From assembly GCF_964355755.1 (NCBI RefSeq), contig NC_092674.1:19716001-19780000 (forward strand): DNA of 64,000 bases, given 5' to 3'. How positions within the stretch are numbered: the first letter of the stretch is position 1; the number at the start of each line of letters is the position of its first letter. Below the pieces are notes generated by a model, which worked only from the letters and a program-made list of their open reading frames with translations, did no database searches and was not told the origin of the DNA. The translations under genes were made by a program, and so were the position numbers. Source of the DNA: Antedon mediterranea. Lineage: Eukaryota > Animalia > Echinodermata. Shown here in pieces: positions 31,791 through 61,009 of the stretch.

Positions 31791-34700
31791 TCATCTTTAA
31801 TTGATTTTCCAGCTAGTATAGCCAACGCCTTCTCTGCAGTCGCCCGTACTGAATGGGGCTTCAAACAAGCTTTTAACATGGCTACCATATTTTCACCATG
31901 TTTTTCACAACTATTCTGGAAAATAAGTTGCATATAAATTCCAAATCTAGGTCTTCAGTTTAATCTTAATTTCAAAATCAAGGACACACAATAAAAGTTG
32001 CGAAGACGCATATTAAATCTAGATTTTCATAGCCACCAAAATTAAAAGTAATTCAGCACTATAAACATACAGACATCAAGTTTCTGCATACATAATTGAT
32101 TGCATGAATTTCCTGTGTTACATTATACACAGTAGTATATTACTTACAGGTAGAGCAGGTGCATATGATTGGTCAGTAGCCTTTTTCTCAAAGACGATAT
32201 TTGCGTTGAAATAATCTTCAAATACATATCGTCCCTCAATTGCTTCTATCAGCAAAAGTGCTTAATTAAATAAAATATAAATAGAACAGTAATAATTATT
32301 TTTCAAAAATACATTGCGTGGGCGAGGCATGACAATTTAATTTCGGAAGGATCAACTTTTAGACATATACTGTATACTTTTAGTCTTACTTCAAATTTTT
32401 TATTGTTTATTTATTTATTATTTATTTTTTTTTTTTATTGTTTTTGTCTGCGTCAGTAATAGGTACGCCCTCCACAAGATGTGTTTTTCATCTTTCTGGG
32501 CTTGTACCTTCTTCTTTCGAAATTTGTGTATATATTGTTCATTGAAATCAATTTTGTATATGAAAGGAGAAAATAAATGTTGCTTTGAATTGAATTGAAT
32601 TGAATTCACTTAGGCACTATGAGGCCACTTTAGAAAAAGACAGTTAACACTATAATATTTTTGGATTTATCTCTAAATAGGTTATCAAAAAACAATTACG
32701 GTAAATCTTCTAATAGTAACCCACATTCTAATAGTAAACCCCTTCTAATAGTAACCCACCTTATAAGTCAATCTATAATAATAACCCACTACTCTAATAG
32801 TAACCCACCTTATAAGTCAATCTATAATAATAACCCACTACTCTAATAGTAACCCATGGGAGTTACTATTAGAGTCACAAAAACTTGATGCAGCCGTATT
32901 TTGAAAATAAGGAGATAATGCATGTTGATCTCGGGAGTGAGTGTTTCTGAGTTTATAAAATAAAGTTCAACCAAATTTGTTTATTCGTACTGTTTTATTA
33001 TTTATGAGTTGCTGACCAGAAGTTGGGGGTGGGTTACTATTTTCAGGTGCCTAATTTAAGATTAGTAACAGTAACCCACTCTAATAGTAACTCCCCTTCT
33101 AATAGTAACTCCCCTTCTAATAGTAACCCCCCTTCTAATAGTAACCCACCCTAAAAAACAATTAAAGAATAATAACCCAGGGTTACAATTAAAAGATTTA
33201 CGGTATTGTTTAGAACTTCTCCTTTTCCCGGCTACAAAATACAAAACACCAGTACCCACCATAGCTATAGACATCTGCTTTAAATGAGTTTATATATACT
33301 AAAGGTAAAAAAGGTAAAAGTTAAAACAACACAAAGAGAATGTCGAAAGATAGTTCTATAGGAAAAAATATGGCAAACTAAAAGTGGGTTTTCAAAATTC
33401 TTAACATTTGAGATGAACCTAAAGTGATATGGACACTGTGTTATAGTATAATTTTATTTATTGAACGTTTTTAATTCCCACAGAAAACCCCTAATTGTGG
33501 TAGCAAATCTTTGAACTTACTCTAGAGATTTAGCTTCTTTTTTGAAAGCTTCAATTATATCTTGCTGTTCACCTTGTAACTCTTTGAGCATCTTCAAGGC
33601 AAACACCTTTCCTTCTCTGTCTGTTACTTTGTAAACTTCTCCAAATGATCCTTTTCCAAGAAGTTTCATAGATTTTGTATCGTATTCGTCACTACTTGAC
33701 AGAATCTGCACATCATGTAAACTTAATAATTTTTCACGAACTGCATCCTGTAAAAAAACAAAATTAAAACCAGTTAATATACAGGCTTTTGTTTTCACCT
33801 AAACAATGTTAATGACAGTAGAAAAGGTAAATAAAAATTATTAATTGGGAACTTGTGTTACCTCTAAAACATGTTCAACATTGTCACATTTGATGACAAG
33901 GGTCAGTAATCGGAGAAGTGAGTTGTCAGAATCCCAACCAACTGAAACACTTGTGTCATATGTGTTCCTCCGTTTGGCAACTTCTTCCCCATTGATAACA
34001 ATAAGATGAGTAGTGACCTTCTTTGAACTTGTTGTAGCAGTATCTGCATAGCAAATTGCTTCATTTACACCACCTGAAGGAACAAAAAGATCCCTTAAAG
34101 AAATTTGATGTTTCAGGAATTTCAATTAGGGAACAAAAATGTTTGGTCACATAATAATTATTCACTTTGACCAAAACTTGGATTTAAAACAAGAATTATT
34201 TACCTAAAAAACTGTAATTTAAAGCAAAAACTAGTAAAATTGCCTGCCAGCCAATGGGTTTCAGTGGAATTTTATCCTTTCATTTTGTCTCTTTTTATAT
34301 TTTTTTTAACAGAAATGATTAACTTTAATAAATCTACAAAAATTCAAAGTCTGATTTTAATCTTCATTATTCATGTTTTTTGGGGGAATAATACATCTTA
34401 CATAATTATATATTAAATTACATTTCTAGAAAAACATGTCAGTCAGGATTAGCAGACAAGTTGTTGTTATCAAAACATTATAAATACTATGTGTGTAGGC
34501 CCTAAAATTGTTAATAAAAAAAATCAATGAGGACACATGGTAATAAAGCGTGGTTCCCACTAGCGACGCAACACAGGGACGTAATGCAACGCAAGTGAAT
34601 TGACCAATCACAAGCGATGGCTTATTCGCTATTTGCTAACTGTCTATAACTTCGCTTGTCATTGGTTAAAACGCTTGCGTTACGTAGTTTACGTCCTTGC

Positions 34701-37700
34701 GTTACGTTCTAGTAGAAACCAAGCTTAAAAGTGAAAGGAGTTTATATAGGCTACTATAATGATAATTGTAGTTAAACACAAACCTTTTAATTTAATGTAC
34801 GCGAAAGTGTCGTCTTTCAACCGCTTGTAAGCCTCTGTTCCAATTTCCGCATCAACTATGACCAACTCCAAAGAATTCTTAGTTTTAAGGACAGACTTGG
34901 ATTGGAGTATGACCTCTGCATATTTTCTCAAGGCCATACAACGTTTGTCTTTATCTGGTTGGTGTTCCAATTCCTCAACAACAGCTTGGTAAAGGAATGT
35001 CGCAACTACAGGTGTTTTTCCTAATTCAATTACCTAAAGAAACAATTAGCTTGTTGTTTATTGTTAATTTTTTAATGTATTCAATTGAAAATAATAATGT
35101 TCAAAAAAATGCTTTTTGCTCCTCAAGATTAGTAAATTATTGCTACTATACAGGGGCGGATCCAGCATGTTGGAATAGAGTGGGGGAGGGAGGGGGGGCA
35201 GGTCAGACAGCAAGTACAAAATTTGCTTCGCCACAGCCCCCGCAGCAATCAGCAAATCAGTAATAGTAATTTACAGGCAGTAAAAACACAGACATTGTCG
35301 ACAGTGTTTTGTTTTGCGTTCAATGCAATAATGCTGTACATGGTTAAGGCGATAGGTATATGAAGCTATACCACCCCAACCAGCCTCAGACAAAAAAGCA
35401 CTTGGCATACCAGGAACTAATTTGGCGTAGGAAAAACACCAGGCCTGGCTGCCAACCACCCCCTACTCCCCCACCCTTGGATTCACACCTGTTATACTTA
35501 TTAAGAACTGACGTGAAGCAAACATTACTATAAAATCAGATTTTAAAAAGGATCATTTTGATCCCTAATGTTTTTCTTGAATAACTAAAATAAATATCAA
35601 ATGTAACACTAAAAAGTTGATACATCAGTAGCAATTCAGTAATTTTTTTTTAAAAGACACTTGCATTTAATAGATTTCTTCTTCTACCCTTCATAGCATC
35701 CATTGCTGCTTCAATTTGCTTCTCTTGGCTTTCTCCTAAAACCCACAAGTGAAACAACCATTACAGAGATTTTCATAAAAAATGTAAAGAAATAATAATA
35801 TGACATTGGCAAGACGTTATTCATTGACTGCAAAAGAATAATTTACCTAATAGTTTAAGTACAGTAGAAAGAAAGAAGCACTGAAAGGACATTATGATTA
35901 AACAAGTCAGGCTGAAGCTATTTTTTCTTCAATCATATAACAATTCATTCAGTTATTACTTCTTCTTTGCTAAACTTTCAACAACAAAAAAGTTATCAAC
36001 TTTTTAAACTTCTGGTTAGTCAATTAAAAAAAAATCTTGTTATTTACCAAAAGGATCATTACGAAAAATTCTTTCTAATGAAGGTTTGGATTCCTTTTCA
36101 AGTAATTCTAGTGTAGTCAGTGCGTTAGTTACTTTTGTTGTATGGAAATGAATTTCTGTTGCAGTTTTCTCCAGAAGAAGTTGTTGAGTTAAATAGTTCT
36201 CACGTTGAGTTGGCAAAAATGAGATCTCACGAATCTAAGAACACAAAATACAAATCTTCTATAAAAGTAGCAGAATAAATGTTTTGGAAAGTAAGCACTT
36301 ATTTATGGAATACTAATAGAGGCATGCTGTTGCCATGAAAAAAATTAACATAAAAGATGGTGGAGATCATGCAGCATGTTATGGATAAAACTCCTGTAGA
36401 TATAGAAGTAGAGCAAATTTCATTTGTGACAACCTCAAAGGTGTATCAAAGAATTGAGTGAGAAAGCACATCCAATGCTGTTATAAATATACAAAATAAA
36501 CTCAAATTTAATATTGATACAAAGGTCAACAGACACAGGTAGATGCTAACCTCTCCAGGGGTAATTTCAGATATTTCTCTGATGACATCCCCACTTTTTA
36601 AATGCAGCACAAATTCCCATAACTCCATATCTGCCATTAATGTTGTAAGTTGACCTTCTTGTTCAATTTCATTTTTATTGCTTTTCAAAAAACAAAAATG
36701 TTCTTTCTAAAAATAAAAATAATTTAAATGATCAATTTCTAATATCCTTTTTGCAGTACATAGGTTACAACTTTATAATAAACTGTATTTAACTAACACA
36801 GTGAAACCTTTCAGTTAAAAATGAGGGTATAACATGCGCATTAACAATGTTTATGTCTGTCACCCCCAAACTTGACCCAATATTGTATTGCTAAAACTTA
36901 CAGATGATGGTGTCACAAATCGCTGAATGAAGTTTTTGTACAGACTGTGTTTAGTATCACAACCAAGAAACAGAACATTTCTGCTGTTGAAAATGTTTGT
37001 AAGTTTGGCTGTCAGTCTGTTCTCCTCCTGGTGCAGCAACTCAAATTGTTTTCTTGATTCATCCTATTTATGTTAAAGTATTTTAAGTAAAAATTAAATT
37101 AATTCACCATTGACAATATTTGTAAAGAAATATGATGTGGAAATGATAATTCAATAAAAAAGCATTAACTTTGTATACATACTGTCACAAACATAGAATA
37201 ACTTTTGTCCCCAAACAACTTAACAATGACCTGCCGGTCAAGATTGTTAACTTCTGGCAATCTTGCAACCTATAAATTAAAAATAGCAAATATCTAACTA
37301 TATATCTCAAAAGAAAATAATTCAAGGATATTTCAATTAAATACAAATAAATACATGTTTCTATATTTCAAAACTAGAAGTTTAAAAAAAGTGACAGTGA
37401 ATATATTATTTTAAGAAAATTTTATTTTCAATTATCTAATCTAAAGCCGGGAGAACTTTAACCACATACTGTATGTTATGTGCAATCTGAACAAGGATTT
37501 CCTTTTTAGAAAGATACCAATATAAGGATTTTGTTGTGCAAAAATACTTAATTCATATTGGGCAGGAAATTTCAAATTGGGCAGGAAATTTCAAATTGCG
37601 CAAGTACTGTATTTTGAGTATTTGATCCCAAAGCTTACTTTTTAATATCCAAATCAATAAATATTGCAAGTAATAATATTTATTAATAATTACTTATAGA

Positions 37701-40700
37701 ATAAAATGTTAAAAATATAAAGAATAAACAATTTTTGTTATGTTTTAATAAGAGAGACAAAAAATTGAATGGAAAATTAGGCCTACTTTCAGAGAGGCTG
37801 TGATCCTCTCGCCCTCTTGCCGCTGCGTGGATGTTATGATGAACTAATATTGCGTTGGTATTTTATGCCAATATGAATGTGGGGCTTCCCCTTTTTATGC
37901 CTACTAAGTTTCAAGATTAAAAACATTTTATTGGTCTACTTAAAATGGAAATTCATTTTTTTTAGCATTTAAGACAATAAAACATTACAAAGAAAAATCT
38001 CAAATTACAAACATGCTATAGGCCTAGGCCAATGTTAAAATAATGTTAATTAGGCCAATGTTAAAATACTTATCACAATATTTTTTTGTTTGTTCAAATT
38101 GCGCAGCGCAATTTGAAATTTCGCAAGGCAAATATCTGTGCAATTCAAATTGCGCAAAAAAATTCTTGCGCAAATCGTTCAAATTGCGCATAACATGTTT
38201 TATCCCATAAGAGGTAAACACGAGGCCTACTAAGTTGTTAGTGACAAGGGGTAGCACACCTTTTCCACAATTTTTTTATTTTTTATCATTATCTTCACTC
38301 TCGTGTCTTGTAATGTATAGCATTTGCAGCAAATATTAAATCAAACCTTGATCATTACCTGTTCCAATGTAATTTTATCTCCATCTGTTCCAGATTTCCA
38401 CAAAAAGTGCTCCAATAATTCATCAATATTTGTGGTGAAAATGATAGGAACTTTACCAAGCATGCGAATGGCACCATGGAAACGAGATTGCCGAGCTTCT
38501 GGAGCATTGTCTCTGATGTAACGATTTTCAAGATCAGAAATCTTCTCTCTTGTCAACTATAAGGTCAACATTATTGTTAGCGCACTGTCAATCAACCTGG
38601 CCAATTTTAATCTTTAACTAGATTTGAAATCGTCACTTTGACGAGTTCGGGTTATCCGTGCAAACGCAACATGCAATTACGTTAAAATATCAACGGCAAC
38701 AATTATGCCATCCTATGAAATGAATTAAATATATTGACAGTGCTGAATTGTACCTATTTTGTGTCATAAAGCATAACAGTATTTACGAAATACACTGTAT
38801 ATGTTATATACAGTGTAGACTTGCCCCAAGTCTGTATTATCTTTTTTTTTTATTTATTTGTTTTTATTTCGACCGCGATTTTTGTCTGAAAATACAGACT
38901 TGTGAAACACGTATAGAAATCGATTTGCAGGCCGCAAACATACCATAAGAATGACGTAGGTTATCATACCGTATTTGGCTATATGGGGCGGGCGGTATGT
39001 AAATATGGATTTCGAATCAACCAATTATCATTTTTTTTCAAAATGAAAGAGATCGAGTACGTAGGCCTACCAGTGCTTAATGTACGATCGAGACTGTTGA
39101 AATATAAAATAGTAATGCCAAGTTGTTTTGTTAATTAATTGTTTAGTCCTTGGCCTAGGCCTCTTTCCTAGGTCCTACTCAACTCGCACGTATGACCTGC
39201 CAAATAAAACGCCAATGAAGTAGGCCTACATACCACCGGCACACAACAGGGCTACACCACCACACAGAACAGGACAGGGCCGGGTCTGGGTGGGAATTAA
39301 ATCAAAATTATCTCCGCGTAATAAATGATCCATTCAATGTTTGATTTGCGGAGAAGCTAGCCTATCAAGTATCATATATCAAGACGAGTTTTCATGTTTC
39401 AAAGATCCCATCAAATGTTTACCAGACTACTAGGCATATAAAATAATTTCTAGCCTTCAGAACTTTCATAAATGTACCCAAGTACACATTGTCTAAACGT
39501 AACGGCGCATGCGCATCATCTTAGTTGTTGAGTCTTTGAAATTCTTAAATATGAATATTTAAACGGTGTACGAGAGAGTAGCCAATCGCATGCAGCTGAA
39601 ACTAGTCAACCGGATAATCGTATGCACCAAGAATTCTTGGTGTCAAACCACGTGACTTGTGCGTGTTTCCCCAGACGGAGTATCCAAAATCAAGTAGTAT
39701 ACGTATGAAACGCCATATGTGCCAAAATATTTATCTTTTAACTAATATTAAGACAAAACTCCGTCTGGAACCCAGACTATATACAGTGTAGCATAGATGA
39801 AATTACGAGACCCATCTTTTAATCCAATTTTTAACATGATGTCATCAAAATGAAACACGTCGATAGCAATTTTGGAAGGAAATTATCGGAGCAACAACAT
39901 ATCAACATGTTGAAGAAATTTGGATACGTAAAATATGGAAGCGCGCTCTTTTAAATGTCATGAACTATGAAGCAAAATATGAAATTACTTTTATAATTGA
40001 ACTGGCCATATGATGACGTCACAACATCCGATGCGAATAATTTGTACATGAATTCGTATCTACAATTCAACAGCTTCCAGAAAATGACTTAATCATGAGT
40101 ATCACTTTTTATTCTGAGGAGCTATAGCATATTGAAATTGATTGGAAAGATGAAAATAAGTGACAGGATGACGTCATAAAAATTTTAAAAACGGTATATC
40201 ATGCGAAAGATAATTGATTGACCTAGACAATATCAAAATATGGGGGGAAATGGAATACGGATAAGTGGAGATGTGCTCAGACTATTAAATGTGATGAGCT
40301 ATGACGAAAGAGACAAAAATCCTATATTTTATATTTGAATAGCCATACGATGACTTCACAATGTCTGGTTAGCCATAATAATGCATGATCCGATATCTAC
40401 AACTTAACAACTTCCAGAATGTGTAATAAAAATAAACTTCACCATGTACTAGAATCTATGACTGTTTAAAAAAAGGCCTAATTTTGACAATTTTTGGAAC
40501 TTCTTCTTAAAAAACACGTGCGAATTGTCCAATTCGAAGTGTTCGTATGACGTGATTATAAGTCGAAATTGTTTAAAAGTTGGTAAAATTACTAGAAAAG
40601 GCTAGAAAAAAAAAAATTCATGCTAAAAACGTTAAAAAAAAAAAAAAAATTTGCATGCGCGTGGAAATTTGTATATGCTTAAAATGACATGAAATGCGTA

Positions 40701-43700: not shown

Positions 43701-46641
43701 GGTGTTTATTAATAAAAGTTAACGGAGGCACCATTTAATTGTGATGGGCACTACTTTATTGTGTTTATTAATTAAAAGTAGGTACCATTTACTTGGTGGC
43801 TATATCATAGGTTTATTAGGGTCATGTCTATTTAATTAAAAATAAAAACTCAAAAGAGCCAGATATAAAATCATGTTATGTTATTTCAATATGATGGAGA
43901 TAGCAGAGGTAGACTGCACAGAGAGACAGACGTTACACGACACATGGATGATGAAGTCTACCTATCACGTGTTGTGCGCTGCACGAACGACGATAGCCGA
44001 CGACGGTCGGCTATTTACCCGGATTGTCTATTTTTCGATAGGGTGTACTTTTCATTAAAAAGGAACATAGTATCTTCAATGAATGACGTCTTAATCTTAT
44101 CAAAATCAAATATTTATGCGTTATGCATTTTAGAATCTGCCAATTTAATGTAGTTTCATATTTTACCCTTAATAAACTTTCCTCGTGCGTGCAGTGCGTC
44201 AGTAGAGTATACAAAACAACATTCAAAAAAATGGTAGAGTCTAACAGAGATTTAACTAAACACACACATTATGCATTTTATTGCGGACTATTAATACAGC
44301 TAGCTGAGCAGGGCCGGCCGCCGACTTCTGTGTTGTTGTTGTGTATAAATAATCGGGATGGTATAAGTTTCTCCCCCTGACAGAAACGCTTTGGCGCAGC
44401 CTGAGGGATGGAAAGACGTGGTACTCCGTGCTTTGGCCTAAATTATCTGTACGTTCAACAACGATACGAGTGTTCATTTGCTAGGAATTGTCCTCAATAT
44501 TTTTAGCATACGACGTACATATTTTATAGGCCTAGGCCGCCGCTACTGCACTTTCGCAACTCTTGAGCATACCCACTTTAAAAACATTCACCGGCTGCAC
44601 GGCGGTGACGGTGAGTGTCAGTGACCGTGAAGTCTTAGGACACGATTTTCGCCTGGTGGGTACGGAAGCCATCAGACAAATGACCAGCCAACCGTAAAAA
44701 ATAAAAATAACATAGCGTTCAGGGGATTTCAGAAAACTGTAAAATGTTTCTTATTAAATTCATAACTGTATGAATCCTGTATGAATAAAACCATTTTGAA
44801 CAATTGTTTGATCATTGTTATAAAATACAACGAAAATGATTATTTTTAATATAGTGATTTAGGCATGGCTCTCTCTCTCTAAATGCCTTACAAAAACCAT
44901 TATTTAAAACATTTTTTATTTTGGCTAAAAACCAGTTCATTTGGCTAAAAAAAAAAATTGAACTTTAGCCATTTTGGCTATAGATATTAAACTGATTTGA
45001 CTGAAAAAAATATTTTGATTTTCGCCAAAAGGCTAAACAAAATGAAATGTTAGTGCTACCCCAGTTACTTGCTGCTGCAACCACTTTTATTTTTCAAGGC
45101 TACAGTGCATCTTCTCATAAAATAATCGCCGTGGCTAAAGATACGGTACTGTATCCATACTTCTAAAAACTAAAGGTACGTTAATTATAAATTGCATTCC
45201 TAAATCTGGATCCTTAATATAAAACTCATTCCTAAATATTAAACTCGTTCCTAAGTATTAAAAACCTAACCCTCTAAATAATAAATAATAATAATAAATT
45301 AAAAACTAAAAAAAAAAAAAGACCATGCAACTTATTCCATTGCCCCAAAGACCCACATCATAGTTCATTTACTACTAACCAGAAATGTAAGAAAAATTAA
45401 AATACTGTATCATAGGTCTGCTTTTGAATGAAACAGGGTTCACCCCTCACAAGAGACCAATTGTTGGTTGGCTACTATTCTGGGTTCCTGACAGAGTTTT
45501 GTTTTAATATTAGGTAAAAGATAAATATTTTGGCACATATGGCTTTTCATATGTATACAACTTGAGCTTGGATATTTCAGACAAAAATCGGAATAAAAAC
45601 AAATAAATAAAAGACAAGTCTAGTAGGCAACTTACAATTCATTCTTTGGTAAATAAAATAAAAGACAAATTTCAAACTTTAATTAAATAGGATGTTGGAA
45701 TGGTCCAGTAGAAGGCTACCGTTCAGACCAAATGAAGACATATGATACTGAGCAAACACAATCCATCCAATATAGGTTATGGAATATGGGCGGCCATTAG
45801 GGCCAAAATAGACAAACGTTGCTTTACGAACAATTCCGCTTCCGTAAGCCAAACAAATGGCGTTAAAAAGACATTATCCACTCCTGTAAGCCAAACAAAT
45901 GGCGTTAAAGACATAATTCATCGAGTGACAAACAAATATTGCTGTACGGACAAACGCACACATTGCCGTATGAACAAATTGCCGTTCATACAGCAATGTG
46001 TGCGTTTGTCCGTACGGCAAAATTTGTTTGTCACTCGATGAATTAGGTCTTTAACGCCATTTGTTTGGCTTACAAGAGCGGATAATTGTCGTATTCGATT
46101 TAGACTTTCACCGTTGAGTACAGTTTTTCCGTTGAGTACTTCTTTAACGGAGAATTTTGAGCGTTGAGATTGTTCTTAACGAAAAAGCTTTCGTTGTCAA
46201 CGTTTTCTATTCGAATGACTTTCTGTTGAGCACAAATTTACAATTCAAATACAAAAAGTACTCAACGAATCTTTACGTTGACAACGAAAGTTCCCAATCG
46301 AATACGACAATTGTCTTTAACGCCATTTGTTTGGCTTACATACAAGAGCGGATAATGTCTTTAACGCCATTTGTTTGGCTTACGGAAGCGGAATTGTTCG
46401 TACGGCAACGTTTGTCTATTTTGGCACTAATGGCCGCCCATAATGGAAGACATTTTTTGTAGGCCTACGGTATTACCTGAGGATTATCAGCATCTACATG
46501 GCCCCACCACTGATCAATCGTGGCTGCACGAGGTAGAGCAGATTCACCCTCTCCTATAACAAGTAGCAATTCCTTTTCTTTTATGAGCTTACGGAGATCT
46601 TTTACCCCATCGAAAAGTGTTCTATTGTTACGACCTTCCAT
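29490..46641 (-). CDS. Multidomain protein: SIR2_2-like Sir2 domain + uncharacterised middle domain + incomplete protein kinase + MBL-fold metallohydrolase. Exons (5'->3'): 46641-46477, 38556-38359, 37269-37183, 37063-36902, 36706-36551, 36234-36048, 35735-35665, 35033-34784, 34073-33862, 33747-33521, 33298-33260, 32260-32148, 31915-31741, 31368-31258, 30875-30676, 30127-30013, 29776-29490
   Basis: Exons joined through AG/GT (one GC) sites with matching phase, except at 33521/33298. Sir2 motifs: LLLVIGEGES, IFTTNIDELLE, VIVKLFGD, VLFLGCD. Kinase motifs: LLGKGSFGEVYK, FALK, KADVYSYALLLIE, CLKPHSVRAT. MBL motifs: LGTGKG, LVDVG, ITHNHTDH, QHSEVCYG, FSADSG, EHAS. Confidence 0.85.
32420..32606 (+). 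mobile_element. 3' tail fragment of a LINE/SINE-like element
   Basis: aaaataaatgttgctt followed by a (TGAAT)n tail. Confidence 0.4.
32696..33205. mobile_element. TA-flanked Tc1/mariner-type MITE with ctaatagtaaccc subrepeats
   Basis: tacggtaaatcttctaatagtaaccc ... gggttacaattaaaagatttacggta inverted termini; internal 18-bp repeats. Confidence 0.75.
34544..34727. mobile_element. Small Harbinger-like MITE
   Basis: taaAGCGTGGTTCCCACTAG ... CTAGTAGAAACCAAGCTtaa; a related internal fragment occurs near 62955-62995. Confidence 0.6.
35151..35491. mobile_element. MITE with CAGGGGCGGATCCAG-type termini
   Basis: caggggcggatccagc ... ttggattcacacctg imperfect TIR with G-run/C-run subtermini. Confidence 0.5.
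38617..42360 (-). mobile_element. Helentron-type non-autonomous element (family A, reverse orientation) interrupted by younger insertions
   Basis: 3' hairpin+CTAG end at 38617-38660 and 5' palindrome gttatccgc...gcggataac at 42336-42359; body is the reverse complement of 54730-56313 and 56320-57831. Confidence 0.75.
40873..42156. mobile_element. DNA-transposon-like insertion with CAGG(C/G)CCGTAGCCAGG inverted termini
   Basis: caggcccgtagccagg (40873) vs cctggctacggccctg (42141-42156), nested in the Helentron-type element. Confidence 0.65.
42758..43875. repeat. Foldback structure: ~100-bp inverted arms enclosing ~55-bp subrepeats and the Kolobok-like MITE
   Basis: gtttttatttttaattaaatagacatgaccctaataaacctatgatatagcca (42781-42833) is inverted at 43797-43849. 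Confidence 0.8.
42997..43558. mobile_element. Second copy of the TTAA/Kolobok-like MITE (inverted relative to 2730-3364, with an internal deletion)
   Basis: ttaaATCCCCCTTCCCTACG...GCAGGGAAGGGGTCTttaa; near-identical internal sequence. Confidence 0.85.
45787..46442. mobile_element. Long-TIR foldback MITE with a nested smaller inverted-repeat insertion (~46084-46311)
   Basis: tatgggcggccattagggccaaaatagacaaacgttg ... caacgtttgtctattttggcactaatggccgcccata; nested attgtcgtattcgatt ... aatcgaatacgacaat. Confidence 0.85.
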
Positions 46642-46778
46642 TTCGGTGACTCCCTAAACACTGGGCATAATAAGTAACCAAAACAATACAAACTTTCCAT
46701 TAAGCTAAAATTAGTTGTTTTTAAATTCCCATTGCAATATTAATAGCTGCGAGTACCTTCTTACTACGTAAACAGGAT

Positions 46779-46840
46779 GGAATTTCACGGGGAAAGTCCC
46801 TATTACGTAATGCACCAATACGCAAACTTCATTGGTTGGC
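46779..46840. promoter_or_regulatory. Putative promoter with an exact NF-kappaB site (GGGACTTTCC on the minus strand, 46791-46800), an adjacent kappaB-like GGAATTTCAC, a TTACGTAA bZIP palindrome and CCAAT boxes
   Basis: Sequence ggaatttcacgg-ggaaagtccc-tattacgtaatgcaccaat...attgg, ~150 bp upstream of the fusion-gene ATG and next to a probable short non-coding exon (minus-strand donor near 46756). Confidence 0.65.
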
Positions 46841-48150
46841 TTGGCTAAAACAGTCAACAGATTTGAAGATTAATACGTGGTGTAGCAAACAATCCTCTCA
46901 TTTTCTAGCCTAGAAGATAAATTGACAAGTTGATCTATTGAAAAGTAAGTATAGTGTATACCTTTCTTGTATAAAATACAAGCTAACAAACAAATCCGTA
47001 AAATGTTTTTGTCGAATTCACATAAAGGCAAGATGTCAGCAGGGTCTGCTCTCTAGACTCTCAACGCAGGCAGAGAGGAAGAGGGAGCTGTTCAGTATAC
47101 ATACGTCTAGCCTACAATGTGTTTGCCAGAATAGACACAAAAAAAACAGGTTCTCATTTTCTGTCAATAGATACTTTCCGGTTTATCCTTATGTTTTTTA
47201 TTCAGGAGGAAGTCTTTGTCTAGGTAGGAAAACCCGGATTAACTACTTCAGGACCAGAATAATTTATGTTTGGCTATATGTGTAGCAGACCTACCACATA
47301 GCTTTTAATTCAACAATTACTTTTAATTTGATTATTTATACATCCTCTATATATCTCTTTATTTAACCTCACATTGACAGGTTACCTTCACTTTTCTAGC
47401 TAATGGATTTTAAGAATGTTAATGACTCTAACAGAAAACCACATTAATTCTCTTAATCCTAATTGGTCAGATGAGATGGGCCAAGCCCAATATTACCATG
47501 CACTGACCACAACACACTCTTTTCTCAACTAGTCGTGTAGCTACTTTTATTGCTCTGTGTTATCAAACATTGTATATTGTATATTTTATCTGTTTATTGA
47601 GAATCCTCACTTGATTCACTTGGAATAAATGGCATACTTACTTTATACATTTAGTAGTTGTTTTATTTTACCGTTGCGCCGACAATTACTAAATATGCAA
47701 TTGTAAATATTTGATTTCTGTTCTTTGATACATCACTTCAGTAATGTTTGTCTTCAAAAATTGAAACATTTGTATAAAATATTCTAGTACTGTAGAAGTA
47801 TAAATGTAACTGCATAAGCTAAGACATAATTTACCTTTTCTGATTTTTTTTTTTTATTATTTTATTAGATCCTTGTTTTGACATTTAAATTTTTTCCGTC
47901 CATCTTAATCACCCATTTGATAATTTCCACCTTGTCGCCTTCACTCCTCGGACAAATCATTGCTATCTGTTCCTTGTTTCTGGACTAAGAATAGTGGACG
48001 CTGCTTTTCTTTTATTCCAAAACAATGCATAACTTCTAATATGTATCAACCCTGGCAATTAGTAACCCCACCCCAAGCTAAATTGTGACAAATTAGTAGA
48101 AATAAAACAACTACAGTAAAGTAAACACATTTTTTTGAATTAACTTACAA

Positions 48151-49896
48151 ACTCATACTGTAGGTACTCATACTGTAGATACTCACACTGTAGATACTCA
48201 TACTGTAGATACTCATACTGTAGATACTCATACTGTACTAGTACTCATACTGTAGGTACTCATACTGTAGATACTCATACTGTAGGTACTCATACTGTAG
48301 ATACTCACACTGTAGATACTCACACTGTAGATACTCACACTGTAGATACTCATACTGTAGATACTCACACTGTAGATACTCATACTGTAGATACTCATAC
48401 TGTAGGTACTCATACTGTAGATACTCATACTGTAGATACTCATACTGTAGATACTCATACTGTAGATACTCACACTGTAGATACTCATACTGTAGGTACT
48501 CATACTGTAGATACTCATACTGTAGGTACTCATACTGTAGATACTCATACTGTAGGTACTCATACTGTACTAGTACTCATACTGTAGATACTCATACTGT
48601 AGGTACTCATACTGTAGATACTCATACTGTAGATACTCATACTGTACTAGTACTCATACTGTAGGTACTCATACTGTAGATACTCATACTGTAGGTACTC
48701 ATACTGTAGATACTCATACTGTAGGTACTCATACTGTACTAGTACTCATACTGTAGATACTCATACTGTAGGTACTCATACTGTAGATACTCATACTGTA
48801 GATACTCATACTGTAGATACTCATACTGTAGGTACTCATACTGTACTAGTACTCATACTGTAGATACTCATACTGTAGGTACTCATACTGTAGGTACTCA
48901 TACTGTAGATACTCATACTGTAGATACTCATACTGTAGATACTCATACTGTAGGTACTCATACTGTAGGTACTCATACTGTAGATACTCATACTGTAGAT
49001 ACTCATACTGTAGGTACTCATACTGTAGGTACTCATACTGTAGGTACTCATACTGTAGATACTCATACTGTAGGTACTCATACTGTACTAGTACTCATAC
49101 TGTAGATACTCATACTGTAGGTACTCATACTGTAGGTACTCATACTGTAGATACTCATACTGTAGGTACTCATACTGTAGATACTCATACTGTAGGTACT
49201 CATACTGTAGGTACTCATACTGTAGATACTCATACTGTAGATACTCATACTGTAGGTACTCATACTGTAGGTACTCATACTGTAGGTACTCATACTGTAG
49301 ATACTCATACTGTAGGTACTCATACTGTACTAGTACTCATACTGTAGATACTCATACTGTAGATACTCATACTGTAGATACTCATACTGTAGATACTCAT
49401 ACTGTAGGTACTCATACTGTACTAGTACTCATACTGTAGATACTCATACTGTAGGTACTCATACTGTAGGTACTCATACTGTAGATACTCATACTGTAGG
49501 TACTCATACTGTAGATACTCATACTGTAGATACTCATACTGTAGGTACTCATACTGTAGATACTCATACTGTAGATACTCATACTGTACTAGTACTCATA
49601 CTGTAGGTACTCATACTGTAGATACTCATACTGTAGGTACTCATACTGTAGATACTCATACTGTAGGTACTCATACTGTACTAGTTAGTACTCATACTGT
49701 AGATACTCATACTGTAGGTACTCATACTGTAGATACTCATACTGTAGATACTCATACTGTAGATACTCATACTGTAGGTACTCATACTGTACTAGTACTC
49801 ATACTGTAGATACTCATACTGTAGGTACTCATACTGTAGGTACTCATACTGTAGGTACTCATACTGTAGATACTCATACTGTAGATACTCATACTG
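48151..49896. repeat. 15-bp minisatellite (g[a/g]tactcatactgta), over 100 copies, with periodic 17-bp variant units
   Basis: Directly visible; units containing ctagtact recur irregularly. Confidence 0.99.
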
Positions 49897-50520
49897 TTTT
49901 AACACTTTTGGTTGATGAACTATCAAACACTATACTGAAATATCTATATTGTTTAATTAAAATTGGAGCAGTCATCTACTTGATAAAAATATTGATATGA
50001 ACGAATTGTTTATATTTTGTTGTTATTATATTATGTTGTTTGCTTTTACTATTAGAATAGTGAATTATTATCACTATAGATTAATATTTAGGATAGGTTA
50101 GTATTACTATAGAAGGGGTGGGGTTGTTGCTAACCATGATAGCATGACAAACAATATACACTATCTACAATTGTTCTGGGGGAATTGTTTTTCTGCATAC
50201 TGTACTGTATACTGTAATGCTGACTATGTGTACATATACTTAACCTTTTATCCTTGCTGAATAGGCCTACTTGTATTACTACTTGAGATAGCTTTGATGA
50301 GGTATAATATAAGAGATAAGGCTTTTATAAACATCATTCAATCTGTATTATAAAGTTAGTTTTATTTACAAATGACAACCATTATTTATATTATTTTTTA
50401 TTCACTTTGTTTTTCTATACTTATATATTGAACAAAATAAATTTAAAGCCAATTTCACTTCTTAAATTCAAAGGTTAAAAACAAAAAGCAACCTAACCTG
50501 CTGTTATTATACAATTCTCT

Positions 50521-52393: not shown

Positions 52394-52465
52394 GGCTTCT
52401 TGGCGTAGTGGTTATCACGTTTGTTTAACACGCAGAAGGTCCCCGGTTCGAGACCGGGCGAAACC
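52394..52465 (+). pseudogene. tRNA-Val(AAC)-like pseudogene
   Basis: A box tggcgtagtgg, anticodon loop ttAACac, intact T arm cccggTTCGAGAccggg; acceptor stem has mismatches; T-run follows. Confidence 0.75.
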
Positions 52466-52662
52466 TATTTTTCTTAAACTTATGGTGAAATATACTGTGT
52501 AGGCAATATGATATACAGTATATATTTTTTACATACTTATTTTGTATAATCGGTAATTATCACTTTTACACATGTTTAATTTGCTTTGTGCTTATTACCA
52601 TGTTTATTTTGTAATTTAAATGGATTAAAAAACTTTGTGTAACCCACATTTTTGGTGTAAGA

Positions 52663-52735
52663 GGTTTCGTAGTGTAGTGGTTATCAAGTCTGCTTAACAC
52701 GAAGAAGGTCCCCGGTTCGAGCTCTGGCGAAACCT
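52663..52735 (+). pseudogene. tRNA-Val(AAC)-like pseudogene, second copy
   Basis: Perfect acceptor stem ggtttcg/cgaaacc and AAC anticodon, but mismatches in D, anticodon and T stems; same 3' flank as the first copy. Confidence 0.75.
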
Positions 52736-53420
52736 ATTTTTCTTAAACTTATGGTGAAATATACTGTATACGTAATATACCGGAAGAGTATATCTCGTTT
52801 TATTACTCGGGGTACCTGAGTCTAGGACTCTCTCATCTTTCCTCTTCTTCTTCCATCCGGACACTAATTGAGTAAAAAGTGCGACTTGTAAAGTGCTACT
52901 CCTCCCTTATTTTTTGTGGTATTGAGCTGGGATTTGGCATGAATATACTACAGGGGCATGTCCTCAAATCTATAGATTTTTTTATTTCAAACCGGATGCA
53001 GCCATATCACGTCTCGAAGATGGTATTTGGTAGCGAGGTTATTAATGTGTATGTGTGACGTTTCATCAGGTCTTATGACGTCATTACAGCTTTTTTTGAT
53101 GTACCCCGAGTATCGCACATTCGTGCTTGTTAAAAGATATATTGATTGAATGATTTTGTAAGAATCTTTAATTATTTATAACATAGTATTTTCATCAAGA
53201 TGAAGAAAAAGAGAGATATTTTTGTGAGGTGAAATAGGTAATTAATACAAGCATCCCAATCTATAGCTCTCCCAAATTTCGTTATAGATCTCCCAAATTT
53301 CATTATACTGTAGATCTATAATGAAAATGTATCTATCCACCCCTTGTTTAAGGTCACACAGAGCAAAATAAGTTTTTATTTTTAATTATGTAATTTCTTC
53401 TATGCAGAAAACTTTGAAGC

Positions 53421-56400
53421 ATGTCGTTGTCATTCCAAGAAGAAATGCAAAATGCATTTGAAAAGTACTACAACCACTCCAACTATCCAACAACAGTGGC
53501 AAATGAACTTGAAGTTTTACAAAAGAAATTTGGAAAAGAAGAATTTCATGAGAAGTTTGTGAAACCCACTCAGAAGTTGCTACACACACTTCAGGTCTTT
53601 AGCAACAAAGTGAACTCTTGTTACATGAGAATTTTAACCAACAAAAATATTTTCTATCACAATTCAAAGATAAGCAAATTACCTATTATGGTATTAAAGT
53701 TTTATTGTGAAGTTTATAATACAGTAATGGCAAAAATACATTTTGGACATACACTATTCAATATAGATTAGATAAAAAAAATTTTGAATTTGCAATTTTA
53801 ATGTCATTTAATAATTATTCTGATAAAACCATTATTTTAAGAAACAAAATGGAAGCCCATTGTTGGAAAGTCAACAGGTTTATGGTTCATCAATGTTTAA
53901 AGCAAAATCACTATTGTTAATTTTTTCCAATTACCCTAAATAACTAAATTTAAAATACAAATAACCTATTTAAAATGTTTTCATCTTATGGATGACAATA
54001 CATCTTTATTATTTAAAATCCTTCAAGTCCTCTTCTGTTGTTCCTTAATTTCATTTATTCATTGATGGTCATTTCATCATTTTACTACTATTATACTACA
54101 CTTTTAAAAAATCAATTTTTCCACTATTCAATTTCTTTAAATATTTTGTTTTGCAGGACAAGCAAATGCCTTTATACAAAAAAGATGGCCAGACACTAAA
54201 GATTATAGTTCACATTGCATTGAAGGAGAAACAGAAAGTTGAAACAGGAGAGTTCTTATTTTGTGTAAGTTTATCATTTAATTATGTTTAAAAGTTATTT
54301 CTATAAAAAAAAATCCTGGTAAAATAATTTCAATAATATTCCTGCCACACAAATCTTCAAAATGATTATATGCATGTGATTTGGTTTAGTATTAAAAACC
54401 CAGCTAGGCACCATAACATTACCCAAATAACTAGACCTTTGTACCTTCCAACATGCTGTTGTGTGTGACCAATAATGTGCTTTTAACATTAAATCATCAA
54501 AAGCAAAAGCTTTTTGTTTTTATTAAGGTTTTGTGGCAAAATTTGTGAATGTGAATAACTTTAAAAACCAATTAATATTATTATATTATTATTTTCTTAA
54601 ACATTGCACCCTTGTTAGGTTATATGCATTATCATGCATATAACCTCTTGATTCTGTCAAAATCTTTATTTATTTATTAGTTATCCGCATTCAGCGGATA
54701 ACTCCTTGTAACTGTCCTGTTACTTTTTAGTTATCCGCTTAGTAGCGGATAACTCCTTGTAATCGTCCTGTTTCATCATATTTTTTTTTCTTTTCTGTAT
54801 TATACTTCTTTCCTTCTGTCATTTTTGTGCGTCGCGTTTCTCTAAAACGTGTAAACAGAACATATCGTAACTTTGTCAACATATCGACATTTACGTGAAC
54901 TTGTGCACCTCCTATTTTTGAATGACGTCAGAGTTGCGCAACGTGACTTACGCGCGATTTTATGAATTTCAATGATTGATCATAGACTAAAAACCAAACA
55001 TAATTTTGTTTTGACACTTTGTGAAAATTTAAATCATATCAAGCGCAAACTTTCTATGGATTAAAAATAGCATGTTTCACAAAAAGTTACGCGCGCACGC
55101 GCGTTTAAAATTTTAGAATGCGAAAAATCAACTTCTAATCAACTTTCTATGCGTTTCATGTCATTTTGAGCATGTCAAAAATTCCCAAGCGCGCGAACAT
55201 TTTTACGCACGCGGTGCATACGTAGGGTTAAAAACATATTTTTTTCGCGTGATTTATGTTTTTTTCAGCCTTTTCTAGTAATTTTACCAAATTTTAAACA
55301 ATTTCGACTTAAAATTACGTCATACGAGCACGTCGAATTAGATAATTTGCACGCGTTTTTGGTGAAAAAGTTCAAAAATTCGTCAAAATTATGCCTATTT
55401 TTAAACAGTCATAGATTCTAAACTACATGGAGAACTTTTTTTTAATTTCATATTCTGGAAGTTGATGAGTTGTAGATATCGGATCATGTATTAATATGGC
55501 TAACCGGACATTGTGACGTCATCGTATGGCCACGCGAATATAAAATATAGGATTTTTGTCTCTTTCGTCATAGCTCATCACATTTAATAGAGCGCATCTC
55601 CACTTATTCGTTGTCCATTTTCACTCCGATTTTAATATATTCTAGATCAATCAACTATCTTTTGCATGAATTAAAAATTTTTTAATTTTTTGAACGTCAT
55701 CATGCCTAAAAATTTAAATTACGTTGGTCATTAATTTCATCTTTACAGTAAATTTTAATCTGTTATACCTCGTAAGAATAAAATGTGATAATCACAATTA
55801 AAACGTTTTCAGGAAGCTATTGTATTGTAGATACAAAATCATGTGTAAATTGTGCCAATCGAATGTTGTGACGTCATCATATGGCCAGTTAAATAAAAAA
55901 AGTCGTATTTTCATCTTTTGCACTATATTTCATTACATTTAAAAGAGCGCGCATCAATATTTCACGTATTCAAATTTCTTCTACACGTTAATACGTTGTT
56001 GCTGAGATAATTTCATTCAGAAATTTCTACTTTTACATTTCATTTTGAAACCATCAAGATGTTAAAAATTACAATAAAATACGGGTCCCGTAATTTCACC
56101 TATTTTACACTGTTTGTGATATGTATACAGATTGTACTGTGTATACTATATGACACAAAATAACAGAATTCAGAAATATCAACATATCATATTCTTCAGT
56201 TCAGGTCATAATGCCTTAATATTTTTCTGTGTGCAATATTCTAACGTATGACGTGCACGTGGCGTTTGTCGAGCGGATAACTAACTCGTCAAAGTGACGA
56301 GTTTCATGTCTAGTTTTTTTTTTCTTTCTTTCTCCTCTATTTTTGTGTCTCGCGTATCTCAAAAACGTGTAAACATAACATGTTATAACTTTGTCAGCAT

Positions 56401-59400
56401 GAGATCATTCAGGTGAAGTTGTGCACCTCCTATTTTTGAATGACGTCAGAGTTGCGCAACATGACTTACGCGCGTTTTTACAAATTTCGCCTATTTAACA
56501 TAGATTGAAAACCATATAGCAATTTAAATTGAAACTTAACAAAAGTTTAATTGATTTCTTGCGCTAACTGAATGTGAAAAAAAATTGGCATGTTTCACAC
56601 GAAGTTACGCGCGCACGCGCATTTAAAATTTCAAAATGCGAAAAATCAATTTCTAATCAACTTTCTACGCGTTTCATGTCATTTAGAGCATGTAAAAAAT
56701 TCCCACGTGCGGGCATTTTTTTACGCGCGCGGTGCGCACGTAGCGTTGAACACAATTTTTTTTGCGTGATTTATGTTTTTCCAGCCTTTTCTAGTAATTT
56801 TACCAACTTTTGAACAATTTCGACTTAAAATTACGTCACACGGGCACGTTGAATTGGATAATTTACGTGCATTTTAGATGAAAAAGTTCAAAAAATCGTC
56901 AAAATTATGCCCTCTTTTAAACAGTCGTAGTTCCTAAACTAAACGGTGAAAGTTATTTTTATTGCATATTCTGAAAGTTGATGAGTTGTAGCTTTTGGAT
57001 CATGCATTAATATGGCTAACCGAACATTGTGACGTCACCGTATGGCCATGCGAATATAAAATATAGGATTTTTGTATCTTTCATCATAGTGCATGACATT
57101 TAATAGAGCGCATCTCCAATTATCTGTTTTCCATCTTTACCCCGATTTTTATATTATCTAGGTCAATCAACTATCTTTCGTATGAGTTAAAAATATTTTA
57201 AGTTTTATGACGTCATCATGTCTAAAAATGTAAATAACGTGGGTCACTTATTTTCGTCTTTACAGTAAATTTCAATCTGTTATAGCTCGTCAGAATAAAA
57301 CGTGATAATCATGATTAAAACGTTTTCTGGAAGCAATTGGATTGTAGATACGAATTTATGTAAACATTTTGCCAATCGGATGTTGTGACGTCATCATATG
57401 GCCAGTTGAATAAAAAAAGTCGTATTTTCATATTTTGCGTAATAGTTCATCACATTTAAAAGGGCGCGTATCTATATTTTACGTATTCAAATTTCTTCTA
57501 CACGTTAATATGTTTTTGCCGAGATAATTTTCTTCCGAAATTGCTATCTTAGTGTTTCATTTTGATACCGTCGCCATGTTAAAAATTGGAATAAATGGCG
57601 GGTCCAGTTATTTCACCTATTCTACACTGTATGTAATATGTATACAGATTATATTGTATATACTATATGACACAAAATAACAGAATTCAGCAATAACAAC
57701 ATATCATATTCTTCAGTTCAGGTCATATTGCCATAATCTTTTTCCGTGTGCAATATTCTAACGTATGACGTGCACGTGGCCTTTATCGTGCGGATAACTA
57801 ACTCGTCAAAGTGACGAGTTACATGTCTAGTTTATTTATTCTTTCCTTAGCACCATTTTGTCCGTGAATTATCTTGATATCAGTTTCATCTATCTAAGTC
57901 AATTTTTCAGAGTATATTCCTTATGGCCAAGAATCGATGTGGTTATGTTTTCAGGGTGCGCAATCAAACATTACGCGATCTACGCGCAATTTAACGAAAT
58001 CACGTTTGTAATCGTATCTTCACAAGCATGAATCACTTTTGAACAAAATTTGGTACTCATAAATTTCAGGTCATATTTCATCATATGGCAATACAATTAC
58101 GTGCGTAGCGCATATAACGCATGCGTACGCGCGCTTAAAATGTTGAAAATTGTCAGAATTTATTTTTGATGAAATTAGAGTACGTTTCAAGCAATTTTAA
58201 GCGTTTAAAAAATTGCCATGAGTGCGCAGATTATTGCACGCGCACTGTTTTTGTCAGATTACTGTTGTATAACCTTTCTTTAATAATATCATCATATTTT
58301 ATTCACTTTTCAACGCGAAACAGCGTTATACGAGCACGTCAAAAGTGACAGGCTACGCACGTGTAAGTTAACAAAATGGTGAAAATATGCTAAATTTTAA
58401 AATTAATATATATCGTTAGAATGCTCGGGAACACCTATTTTTTATTTAATTTTCTTGAAGTGTATGTATCATATGTATGATTTATTATGAAATTAGAAGA
58501 ACAAAAGTTGATTAAGTCATCATTAATGGCATATTAAATTTAACCAAATTAATTTCGACAATCAAACAAATTATAACATTTTCTTAGGCCAAAATAACAA
58601 ACTTAACATTAACTTTCTTCCTTAAGAAGTTCATATATTAAAGTTAAAAGTATATAGTTTGACAGTGCATCATTTTTTTAAATTTTTAAAGATGTCATCA
58701 TAGTAAAACATTATAATTCATTGCGTTATGTAATAATCTATCTGCACCAAAGTGGTTACTGCATAGTAAATACACGGAGGAATCTTTCCATAACTTTTAG
58801 TCAGTTGTGTATGGCTCGGTGGTCTTTGCTCGTGTCTATAGCATTCAAGTACCGAGTTCGAGTCTCACCTTGGGAAACCAAACGAAATAAGATTTTTTTT
58901 ATTATCCGTATTGGTTGTTCAATTGTATTTCTTAGTGTATAGATTATACACATGATTTATAATGAAATCTAAATAAAAACACAAATGTGGTTTATGACAT
59001 TATATACGCAGAAAGATCTTTGATCGGATTATGATACCGGCTATTGTATTTGCGTTAGCCAGATCCTATCATATTCCTATAATTAACTAACGATTCTGAG
59101 AAAATCAATCAATCAATATATCTTAAATCAATCAATTATCTTTATTTAAATCAATGCATATAACCTATAATTCGTCATAGTGACGAATTAAATCTAGTTG
59201 TTATTTCTTTTCATCATTAAAAGCCAATCAATAACAAAGCCCAAAATAAGATAAAGGACTAAAGACAAATATTATCTGTGTTATAGTTTAACTAGCAGGT
59301 TCTTTTGTTCATTGCAGGTTGGTCAAACCAAACCAGGAACCTTAACTCTTCGGTTCTGTAAATACATTACACAGCTGGACAGTGGAGTGACTCTTGCTGA

Positions 59401-61009
59401 ACCAAAATATGACACTATAAAAATGACAGTTGAAGAGGGTTCATATAACAAGTGTTTGACTCTTGATTACTTAGACCAACTGCGCAGTTCAGGAAAATTG
59501 ACAGGAACCGAAAGAACATCTGTAATGTTACGTTTGTGTTGGGTGAAAGTACTTACTGACCAGCCACCAGAAGGATTCTTGAAGGTATATGATGCTGAGG
59601 ATTTGTTTGAACAGACCATTCAAAAGGTATGTTATTATTTAGGATCAGACGACTGTCCCTTCAAGACACAGTTTTAATAGGTTTCAGTCAAATGTAAAAA
59701 ATGGTAAATCTACATTTATAAATACTTATAACTTTGATGCTGAGATTTTGTTTATAGGCCTATGACAGAATAATAGACCCTTTTTTTCTGTTTTTGTTTC
59801 ATCCAGAATCCAACACGTTTGCCACACCAAGTGTCTGACGAAGCCAGCTTTAGAAGCCATCATCCCATGGAAATGACCAGACAACGAGCCTATGAGGAAG
59901 ACTCGCAAAAGTATGATTCTGGGTCAAGTAAACCTCAACAGCAATCGAAAAATGATCCTACTGAAATGGAATCTTCTTCAGGTAATTTAGATCTTCCATG
60001 TGAACCAGAATCTTCAGATGTACCAGTAGTAGCATCTAAGCTTCCTTTTAATGAATGGCAGTCTCAATCTGATGCACCTGGGTACTTAACAGACACAGAT
60101 ATTACAGCTCCAGCTAAAGATGTCAATAATGAGTATGTTGATGAAGTGAATGGTGTTGGACCAAAAGCTGGGATATCTGCAGCTAACAAAGTAAGTAATG
60201 CCAGGATGTCCAGGAATTCTGTTTTCTAAATGCTATTGTGTTAAAATCCTGTTTTAGAGAACAACTTTCTGTTTTGTTTTATATAGAATACACATCTGCC
60301 ACACCAAGTTTCTAGTGAAGAACAAGTTAATGATGAAGGCCAGAAATCTGATCCAAACAAACCTCAACGGGAATGGCGAGATGGTCCTACTGGAATGGGA
60401 GGGGAATATGTTCCTGTAGAATCAAATTCTTCCTCAGATAATATAAATCGACAAGAACCAAAACCATTTTCAGGTGTAAAACTACCTTGTAATGAAATGC
60501 AGTCTGAAGATGGGATTAGTTCTCTGAAGTCAAATCTATCTGGAGGTCTAACTAACATACAATATACAAGAAATGTTAGTAGTGGCCCAGCAGCACTGTT
60601 GCAAACAAATGGAGGTCAGACAAAAAGTAAAATAGCCTCAACCACCTCTACAGTATCCTCAGCCAGAGAAGTTGATAATAGTTATGTTACAGAAGTTCAG
60701 GGTGTTGGACCAAGTGGGACATCGGGAATCCATTCTAATGTGGAGAGACAGAAAACTCAAGCCAAAGAAGTTGATAATAGTTATGTTACAGAAGTTCAGA
60801 GTGTTGGACCAAGTGGGAGATCAGGAATCCATTCTAATGTGGAGAGACACAAAATGGAAGCCAAAGAAGTTGATAATACTTATGTTGGAGAATCCAATGC
60901 AATTGGACCAAGTGGGACATCAAGAATCCATTCTAATGTGGAGACACAGAAAAAAACTCAAGCCAAAGAAGTTGATAATAGTTATGTTGGAGAATCCAAG
61001 GCAGTTTGA
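53421..61009 (+). CDS. Uncharacterised protein: N-terminal globular region (possibly degenerate GIY-YIG-like) plus disordered tail with repeated VDNSYVxEVxGVGP motifs. Exons 53421-53594 (or 53609), 54157-54264, 59318-59626, 59807-60190, 60287-61009
   Basis: All junctions are phase-0 AG/GT and give a continuous ORF. The ATG exon starts at an acceptor (53408), implying upstream non-coding exon(s), possibly near 47000-47222. Confidence 0.75.
54615..59198 (+). mobile_element. Nested Helentron-type elements: family B (54615-54675 + 57831-59198) interrupted by two tandem family A copies (54677-56313, 56320-57831)
   Basis: A copies end gcggataactaactcgtcaaagtgacgagtt...tCTAGttt; B ends aattcgtcatagtgacgaattaaatCTAGtt; the insertion point lies in a (TTTA)n tract. 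Confidence 0.8.
60662..61006 (+). repeat. Coding ~99-102-bp tandem repeat (3.5 copies)
   Basis: gccaaagaagttgataatagttatgtt...ggaccaagtggga...ggaatccattctaatgtggaga repeated in frame. Confidence 0.93.

Follow-up and report, generated by a model that had tools for sequence, protein, structure and literature searches.

The window (the whole stretch of 64,000 nt of Antedon mediterranea DNA that was analyzed) contains two neighbouring genes on opposite strands, whose exons are 100% identical to A. mediterranea RefSeq proteins (P0001 for the gene of the plus strand, referred to below as the plus gene, and P0004 for the Sir2 gene of the minus strand). A short cluster of candidate transcription factor binding sites (positions 46779-46840, the element) lies between the coding parts of these genes. 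The features of the locus are collected in Table 1.

Table 1. Genes, transcribed segments and sequence motifs around the element (coordinates refer to the window)
Feature	Position	Strand	Remarks
Kinase C-terminal and metallo-beta-lactamase (MBL) exons	29493-32260	minus	not in frame with the upstream part according to the RefSeq models
Sir2 gene, coding exons 2-10 (P0004)	33523-38556	minus	SIR2_2 domain, middle part without assignment, kinase N-lobe stub
Sir2 gene, exon 2	46477-46660	minus	carries the ATG (46641); splices to 38556 (X5 and X9)
Sir2 gene, intron 1	46661-46961	minus	301 nt, GT..AG, within the 5' UTR; single contig, shorter side 184 letters
Second kB-type site	46779-46788	minus	minus strand reads GTGAAATTCC, plus strand reads GGAATTTCAC; one mismatch to GGGAAATTCC
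Main kB site	46789-46800	minus	12-mer GGGGAAAGTCCC with exact GGGACTTTCC at 46800-46791
bZIP palindrome ATTACGTAAT	46802-46811	none	core TTACGTAA, a PAR-bZIP/E4BP4 D-box
CCAAT word, weak	46815-46819	plus	altered in one of two organism B contigs
NF-Y-type CCAAT box	46829-46837	minus	ATTGG at 46831-46835; inside the first exon of the plus gene according to X5
Plus gene, exon 1, non-coding	46822-46944	plus	donor GT at 46945; joins 53408; the 5' end is the contig end
Sir2 gene, upstream non-coding exon	46962-47276	minus	antisense to intron 1 of the plus gene
Skipped segment	47277-47692	none	416 nt; skipped by X1, X5 and X6 contigs
Plus gene, coding exons	53408-53594 (ATG 53421), 54157-54267, 59318-59626	plus	predicted STAT-type linker-SH2 module
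Plus gene, last two coding exons	within 59807-61009	plus	disordered tail, four DN(S/T)YV repeats

Contigs from four of the nine listed runs (including X1, X5, X6 and X9) were compared with the window over positions 46440-47290. Run X5 comes from the same organism and a different study; X5 and X9 were taken as RNA from their splice joints alone. Each splice joint is represented by one X5 contig, and such contigs give no transcription start, reveal the strand via splice signals only, and omit rarer isoforms; those of X5 have no cover at 46661-46821 and 46945-46961, and such gaps in cover carry no weight as evidence.

The first X5 contig (2654 nt) aligned with 47276-46962, skipped 46661-46961 (GT..AG, minus strand), aligned with 46660-46477 and then entered the exon at 38556. 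It continues for 406 letters upstream of the skipped intron, and extends 94 letters beyond 47276, into sequence matching 47693 onwards. Run X9 (organism B) independently supports the 46477-38556 joint, and that joint only. The second contig (337 nt) covers 46822-46944 and is joined, at a GTAAGT donor, to the P0001 ATG exon (at 53408); the upstream exon itself contains no ATG.

These two splice junctions, observed in contigs of a single run, reveal that the genes are interleaved head to head, the first exon of each lying inside the first intron of the other. Intron 46661-46961 of the Sir2 gene encloses both the whole element and exon 1 of the plus gene, and the splice donors of the two strands are 17 nt apart (46945-46961). 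In this interval, 7 letters are missing from one organism B contig, apparently without loss of either donor. The 12-mer of the main kB site precedes the first exon of the plus gene, as seen in X5, by 21 nt, while the element is located 118 nt from the acceptor of Sir2 intron 1 and at least about 570 nt downstream of the 5' end of the Sir2 contig. The first-pass annotation had placed the element at the head of the Sir2 gene, approx. 150 bp from its ATG. The distance is correct (147 nt separate the main kB site from the minus-strand ATG at 46641); however, the element does not lie upstream of the transcript, but in its first intron, as judged from the one spliced X5 contig of this gene. The sequence TATAAA at 46971 was considered as a TATA box of the plus gene and rejected, since the first exon of this gene lies upstream of it.

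The surroundings of the element contain several variable or repetitive segments. The segment skipped beyond 47276 is likely a haplotype-specific insertion; together with another (about 47718-47864), absent from X1 and X5 contigs, it represents a length polymorphism in the region of the upstream Sir2 exon. Nested inverted repeats (45785-46442; arms of 216 nt and 133 nt, approx. 92% alike, MITE-like) lie in Sir2 intron 2, directly following the exon that bears the ATG. Intron 1 of the plus gene includes a 15-nt tandem array (48151-49897, approx. 115 copies) and, within a duplicated sequence, two tRNA-like matches of low score (35 bits; 52394-52466 and 52663-52735, plus strand), possibly SINE heads. 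In Anneissia japonica, two near-identical homologues of the plus gene (P0002 and P0003) and a kinase-MBL homologue are found on three different contigs, which gives no indication that the pairing is old.

The P0004 protein contains a SIR2_2 domain (E 3.8e-13; 50.2 bits versus a Pfam cut-off of 24.5), and no Zn-cysteine tetrad was seen in its sequence. A Phe residue is aligned, weakly (E 0.003), to the His that was replaced in the mutant structures of KomC. The region between the SIR2 domain and the kinase (35033-33862, P0004 residues approx. 340-500) is well conserved, with 76% to Anneissia. A STING-like nature of this middle domain was considered but found no confirmation: the Pfam ligand-binding match was sub-threshold (E 0.086), the P0004 model had a pLDDT of 34, and the region was common to only two proteins.

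The first-pass annotation spoke of a Sir2-kinase-MBL gene, but in the window this designation does not correspond to a single intact reading frame. The RefSeq models of the Sir2 gene comprise 577, 579 and 493 residues; they leave the frame immediately past the kinase N-lobe and stop before the MBL exons, which persist at 31369-29493 (minus strand). In the Anneissia homologue P0005, the kinase is complete and is accompanied by an MBL domain (the latter carrying a PF23023 match), and its model has no SIR2 part; P0005 residues approx. 245-355, i.e. approx. 110 residues of the kinase core, have no match anywhere in the window, and the HRD, DFG and APE kinase motifs are absent from the Sir2 gene analyzed here. 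The interval of the missing kinase-core exons (33520-32260) adjoins short tandem repeats (32700-33160), with a small exon remnant near 33290-33260.

The predicted model of P0001, the product of the plus gene (built on a 15-sequence alignment), reached a pLDDT of approx. 70-95 over residues 1-190, the rest being disordered. Its best matches among 48,161 representative chains were three STAT structures (Z 10.4-11.0, rmsd 3.2-4.3, 145-166 residues aligned), the three matches with Z of at least 8, followed by SH2 domains with Z of at most 5.5. Foldseek alone gave no match with E < 0.001; its re-aligned matches agree with this assignment (STAT6: Z 11.4, rmsd 2.8, 144 aligned). Sequence searches with P0001 against Pfam, PADLOC, PDB and Atlas returned nothing usable, and P0001 is covered by the annotation PF27628. 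In the predicted fold, residues 1-193 cover the STAT linker helices and the SH2 domain (Z 10.1-11.4). No coiled-coil or DNA-binding domain precedes the linker; the module begins at residue 1, and the remainder of P0001 is predicted to be disordered, without a Pfam match. The product of the plus gene is thus predicted to be a STAT-like SH2 adaptor devoid of a DNA-binding domain. A shared STAT fold does not by itself show a function.

A profile made from P0001-P0003 identified 16 representatives (E at most 0.001) among 1.84 billion. Of 14 relatives, 10 were looked up and seven could be named; these belong to a brittle star, two hemichordates, amphioxus and Lingula. Five of the 14 non-query relatives have a Death-domain match after the shared N-terminal domain (E at most 0.0015; three above the Pfam cut-off), and none was found in the crinoid proteins; the relatives of P0001 have Tyr repeats of their own. 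Residue R106 of P0001 lies in the sequence PGTLTLRF, which we take to resemble the phosphotyrosine-binding strand motif of STATs; at this position 15 of the 16 relatives have Lys, and one has no match to the motif. Stand-alone linker-SH2 modules are known from plants and yeast, and one true STAT each is reported for sea urchin and amphioxus (excerpt of PMC3670131).

Inspection of the element confirmed, letter for letter and at the positions indicated, all motifs reported by the first-pass annotation: the kB 12-mer, an adjoining kB-like site, a palindrome, and CCAAT boxes in both orientations. The second kB site differs from GGRRNNYYCC by one mismatch, has the same orientation as the main site and is separated from it by 2 nt. 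RRCCAATSR is the NF-Y-type CCAAT consensus, and it is fitted by the minus-strand CCAAT only, not by the plus-strand one. According to excerpts of the respective papers, GGGACTTTCC fits the quoted kB consensus (PMC3680474), GGGAAATTCC is a Rel site of very high affinity (PMC11161749), and TTACGTAA served as a D-box reporter, with DBP as its activator and E4BP4 as its repressor in mammals (PMC11461874).

The rarity of the exact words was evaluated after removal of seven tandem arrays, which left 56,925 nt of the window. The exact kB 10-mer occurs once, versus 0.008-0.03 occurrences expected (Markov orders 0-5). When one mismatch is allowed, it is unremarkable (2 observed versus a mean of 1.28; 38 of 100 shuffles reach 2). 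Words resembling kB sites are not rare in the window, because the looser consensus GGGRNWYYCC matches ten times, with overlaps, at four loci. GGRRNNYYCC occurs at six loci of the masked sequence (57 kb), and the chance of a consensus kB locus in any given 100 nt is 0.01. The sequence TTACGTAA is present in a single copy, with 1.4-2.2 expected by chance, and its information therefore lies in its position next to the kB sites alone; the plain CCAAT word is also at background (121 observed versus 116-162 expected).

The clustering, which had been singled out as notable, was borne out by a comparison of five of the six GGRRNNYYCC loci (the one at 3101 was left out): only at the locus described here do a further kB site, the palindrome TTACGTAA and a CCAAT box of the NF-Y type lie close by. 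The local chance rates of these companions are 0.04 for the second kB site, 0.013 for the D-box (within 40 nt) and 0.019 for the NF-Y box (within 100 nt), but their joint probability is no clean test, because the companion motifs were picked after being seen. The statement that the element lies in unique sequence also holds within the window, where self-blastn detected no second copy of the 46779-46840 stretch. A repeat origin of the element thus found no support, and metagenome contigs gave no exact 22-nt match, nor was an Rfam family detected at this place. Further strong kB-like words are located at 17984-17995 and 19427-19438, a few kb upstream of LIM-domain (PINCH-like) coding exons (22494-26687), and others at 37881, in a Sir2 intron, and at 2339, next to a LINE reverse-transcriptase fragment.

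The degree of conservation was examined in the same contigs. X1 covers the element without a substitution; its 7 differences all lie elsewhere, and 3 gap letters could not be placed. Two contigs of X6 (organism B) extend over 46756-47117; they differ at 19 and 24 letters, respectively (over approx. 350 nt), and have 45 and 48 gap letters. The changes listed comprise 16 of the 19 and 17 of the 24 differing letters, a further 2 substitution and 29 indel entries falling outside this list. No change in 46767-46815 is found among those listed; changes do occur at 46816 (which breaks the plus-strand CCAAT in one contig), 46824, 46826 and 46840.

The segment 46779-46811 thus has no listed change versus 2.2-2.7 expected, which is not significant (P 0.10 for the 24 listed positions, 0.055 when the 7 listed indels are included). 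For the listed positions, the P values for the two kB sites alone (0.22) and for the longest untouched block (0.28) are not significant either, and the full 62 nt (46779-46840) contain 4 listed changes versus 4.1 expected (P 0.60). These data agree with constraint on the kB/bZIP core, and do not show it.

On balance, we consider it probable that the element is a functional Rel/NF-kB and bZIP module that forms the proximal promoter of the plus gene, situated inside intron 1 of the Sir2 gene. It is likely a regulatory element of a well-known kind which, judging from its sequence and position, would serve mainly the plus gene and perhaps both genes. Several observations count against this interpretation. 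If 46822 is near the transcription start, the main kB site lies at about -22 to -33, which is unusually close to the start for a kB site of a promoter; the motifs were selected post hoc by a scan that spans very many windows; and the window contains four other kB-like words, two of them near the LIM-domain (PINCH-like) gene. The regulatory reading of the first-pass annotation is retained in part: the motifs are clustered and an RNA-supported first exon adjoins them, but this exon belongs to the gene of the opposite strand, which the first-pass annotation had not linked to the element, and not to the Sir2 gene. The element is therefore best regarded as a lead toward a possible immune role, and not, as had been claimed, as independent support for it.

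An ordinary constitutive TATA-less promoter, in which CCAAT/NF-Y and bZIP factors do the work, the kB match is fortuitous and transcription is not inducible by infection, is an unlikely alternative that draws on the six GGRRNNYYCC loci mentioned above, on the finding that random 1-kb sequences carry approx. 2 predicted NF-kB sites at usual thresholds (excerpt of PMC3488004), on the conservation that falls short of significance, and on the origin of both transcripts from a run with no recorded challenge. Chance does not readily account, however, for tandem sites of which one is exact and the other a single change from a top-affinity site, both free of listed changes in organism B and both placed directly before the RNA-supported first exon of a gene with an immune-type architecture. 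Another alternative is a functional but non-immune module, i.e. a PAR-bZIP element responding to clock, light or stress, with Rel used in development, regeneration or stress. Against it, the domains encoded by the flanking genes point toward immune signalling, and the perfect D-box TTACGTAA, the sole copy in the masked window and the main argument for such a role, is expected about once per window by chance. We consider this reading very unlikely.

The version proposed by the first-pass annotation, in which the module is a promoter of the Sir2 gene and would drive a shorter transcript with its start located downstream of the element and ahead of the ATG (46641), is in our opinion distinctly unlikely. 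The kB sites and the NF-Y-type CCAAT box are all minus-oriented and follow the usual order (CCAAT, bZIP, kB) toward the ATG, but kB sites function in either orientation. Two of the three Sir2 protein isoforms have a pair of RefSeq accessions each, which hints at alternative UTRs and leaves room for a start beside the element; on the other hand, the sole spliced contig removes the element as intron 1 and runs at least 406 letters further upstream. Finally, the SIR2_2 domain groups with antiphage-type SIR2 proteins, predicted to be immune-related in many eukaryotes (excerpt of bioRxiv 10.1101/2024.09.18.613514), yet the kinase core of this gene is disrupted, and Phe stands in place of the His mutated in KomC.

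If the module is indeed the promoter of the plus gene, its action may be envisaged as follows: (i) Toll-type signalling would bring a Rel dimer to the exact kB site, (ii) the weaker adjoining kB site and a bZIP dimer of the PAR or C/EBP type would help to recruit Rel, (iii) transcription of the plus gene would rise during infection, and (iv) the SH2 domain and Tyr repeats of its product would feed phosphotyrosine signalling, as an adaptor or a feedback damper. The module could also act on the Sir2 gene as an intronic enhancer, or the facing transcription could disturb this gene. Excerpts of published work are compatible with several of these steps: weak sites nearby have been proposed to aid the recruitment of NF-kB to strong ones (PMC11161749), sea cucumbers have LPS-responsive Rel and p105 (PMC13673367), and the DNA specificity of NF-kB is largely conserved back to cnidarians (PMC3630861). 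A bolder proposal, which we regard as improbable, is that of a one-element toggle between two immune genes: the module would be an NF-kB switch for STAT-like SH2 adaptors of a so far undescribed family of invertebrates, devoid of a DNA-binding domain and equipped with Death domains in hemichordates and amphioxus, which would link Toll/NF-kB output to phosphotyrosine signalling. Given the facing transcription and the nesting of each first exon within the opposite first intron, induction of the adaptor would retune or silence the antisense SIR2-type gene by transcriptional interference.

The main value of this locus lies in the interleaved layout and in the STAT-like adaptor family. The module leads to an uncharacterised family with a predicted STAT-type linker-SH2 fold, present in echinoderms, hemichordates, amphioxus and a brachiopod, and its 33-nt kB/bZIP part could readily be used to report pathway activity in crinoids, the echinoderm class that branched off first; mainly open-access literature listings showed no NF-kB target in crinoids. 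The locus also teaches caution, in that the nearest ATG may not mark the target gene of a motif.

Several known systems resemble parts of this locus. The Sir2 gene is similar to the SIRim proteins (FAM118B/SIRanc, ThsA, KomC) in its above-cut-off SIR2_2 domain, its GxG and TxNxD-type motifs and the absence of a recognisable Zn-cysteine tetrad, but differs in having Phe at the position of the catalytic His of KomC and in the fusion to an unassigned middle domain and a kinase that is broken in the window; excerpts of the paper describing SIRim (bioRxiv 10.1101/2024.09.18.613514) mention no kinase fusion. As in 5'-overlapping head-to-head sense-antisense pairs, the 5' ends of the two genes overlap on opposite strands, whereas here the first exon of either gene is enclosed by intron 1 of its partner and the donors are only 17 nt apart.

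The canonical kB element GGGACTTTCC originates from the Ig-kappa enhancer, and a tandem pair is found in the HIV-1 LTR. The crinoid element likewise has an exact 10-mer with a second site of the same orientation a few bases away, but this second site has one mismatch to GGRRNNYYCC, the host is a crinoid, and binding is predicted from the sequence. It is also similar to the NF-kB and bZIP composites of inducible genes such as IL-6, IL-8 and serum amyloid A, with a kB site beside a bZIP palindrome near the first exon; here, in contrast, the palindrome is a perfect PAR/E4BP4 D-box and not a typical C/EBP site, and it is located in an intron of the antisense gene. Finally, the plus protein shares a predicted linker-SH2 fold with STATs (STAT1, STAT2, STAT6 and Dictyostelium STATa), from which it differs by an identity of 8-10%, by the lack of the coiled-coil and DNA-binding domains and by a tail of Tyr repeats, to which the relatives from hemichordates and amphioxus add a Death domain.
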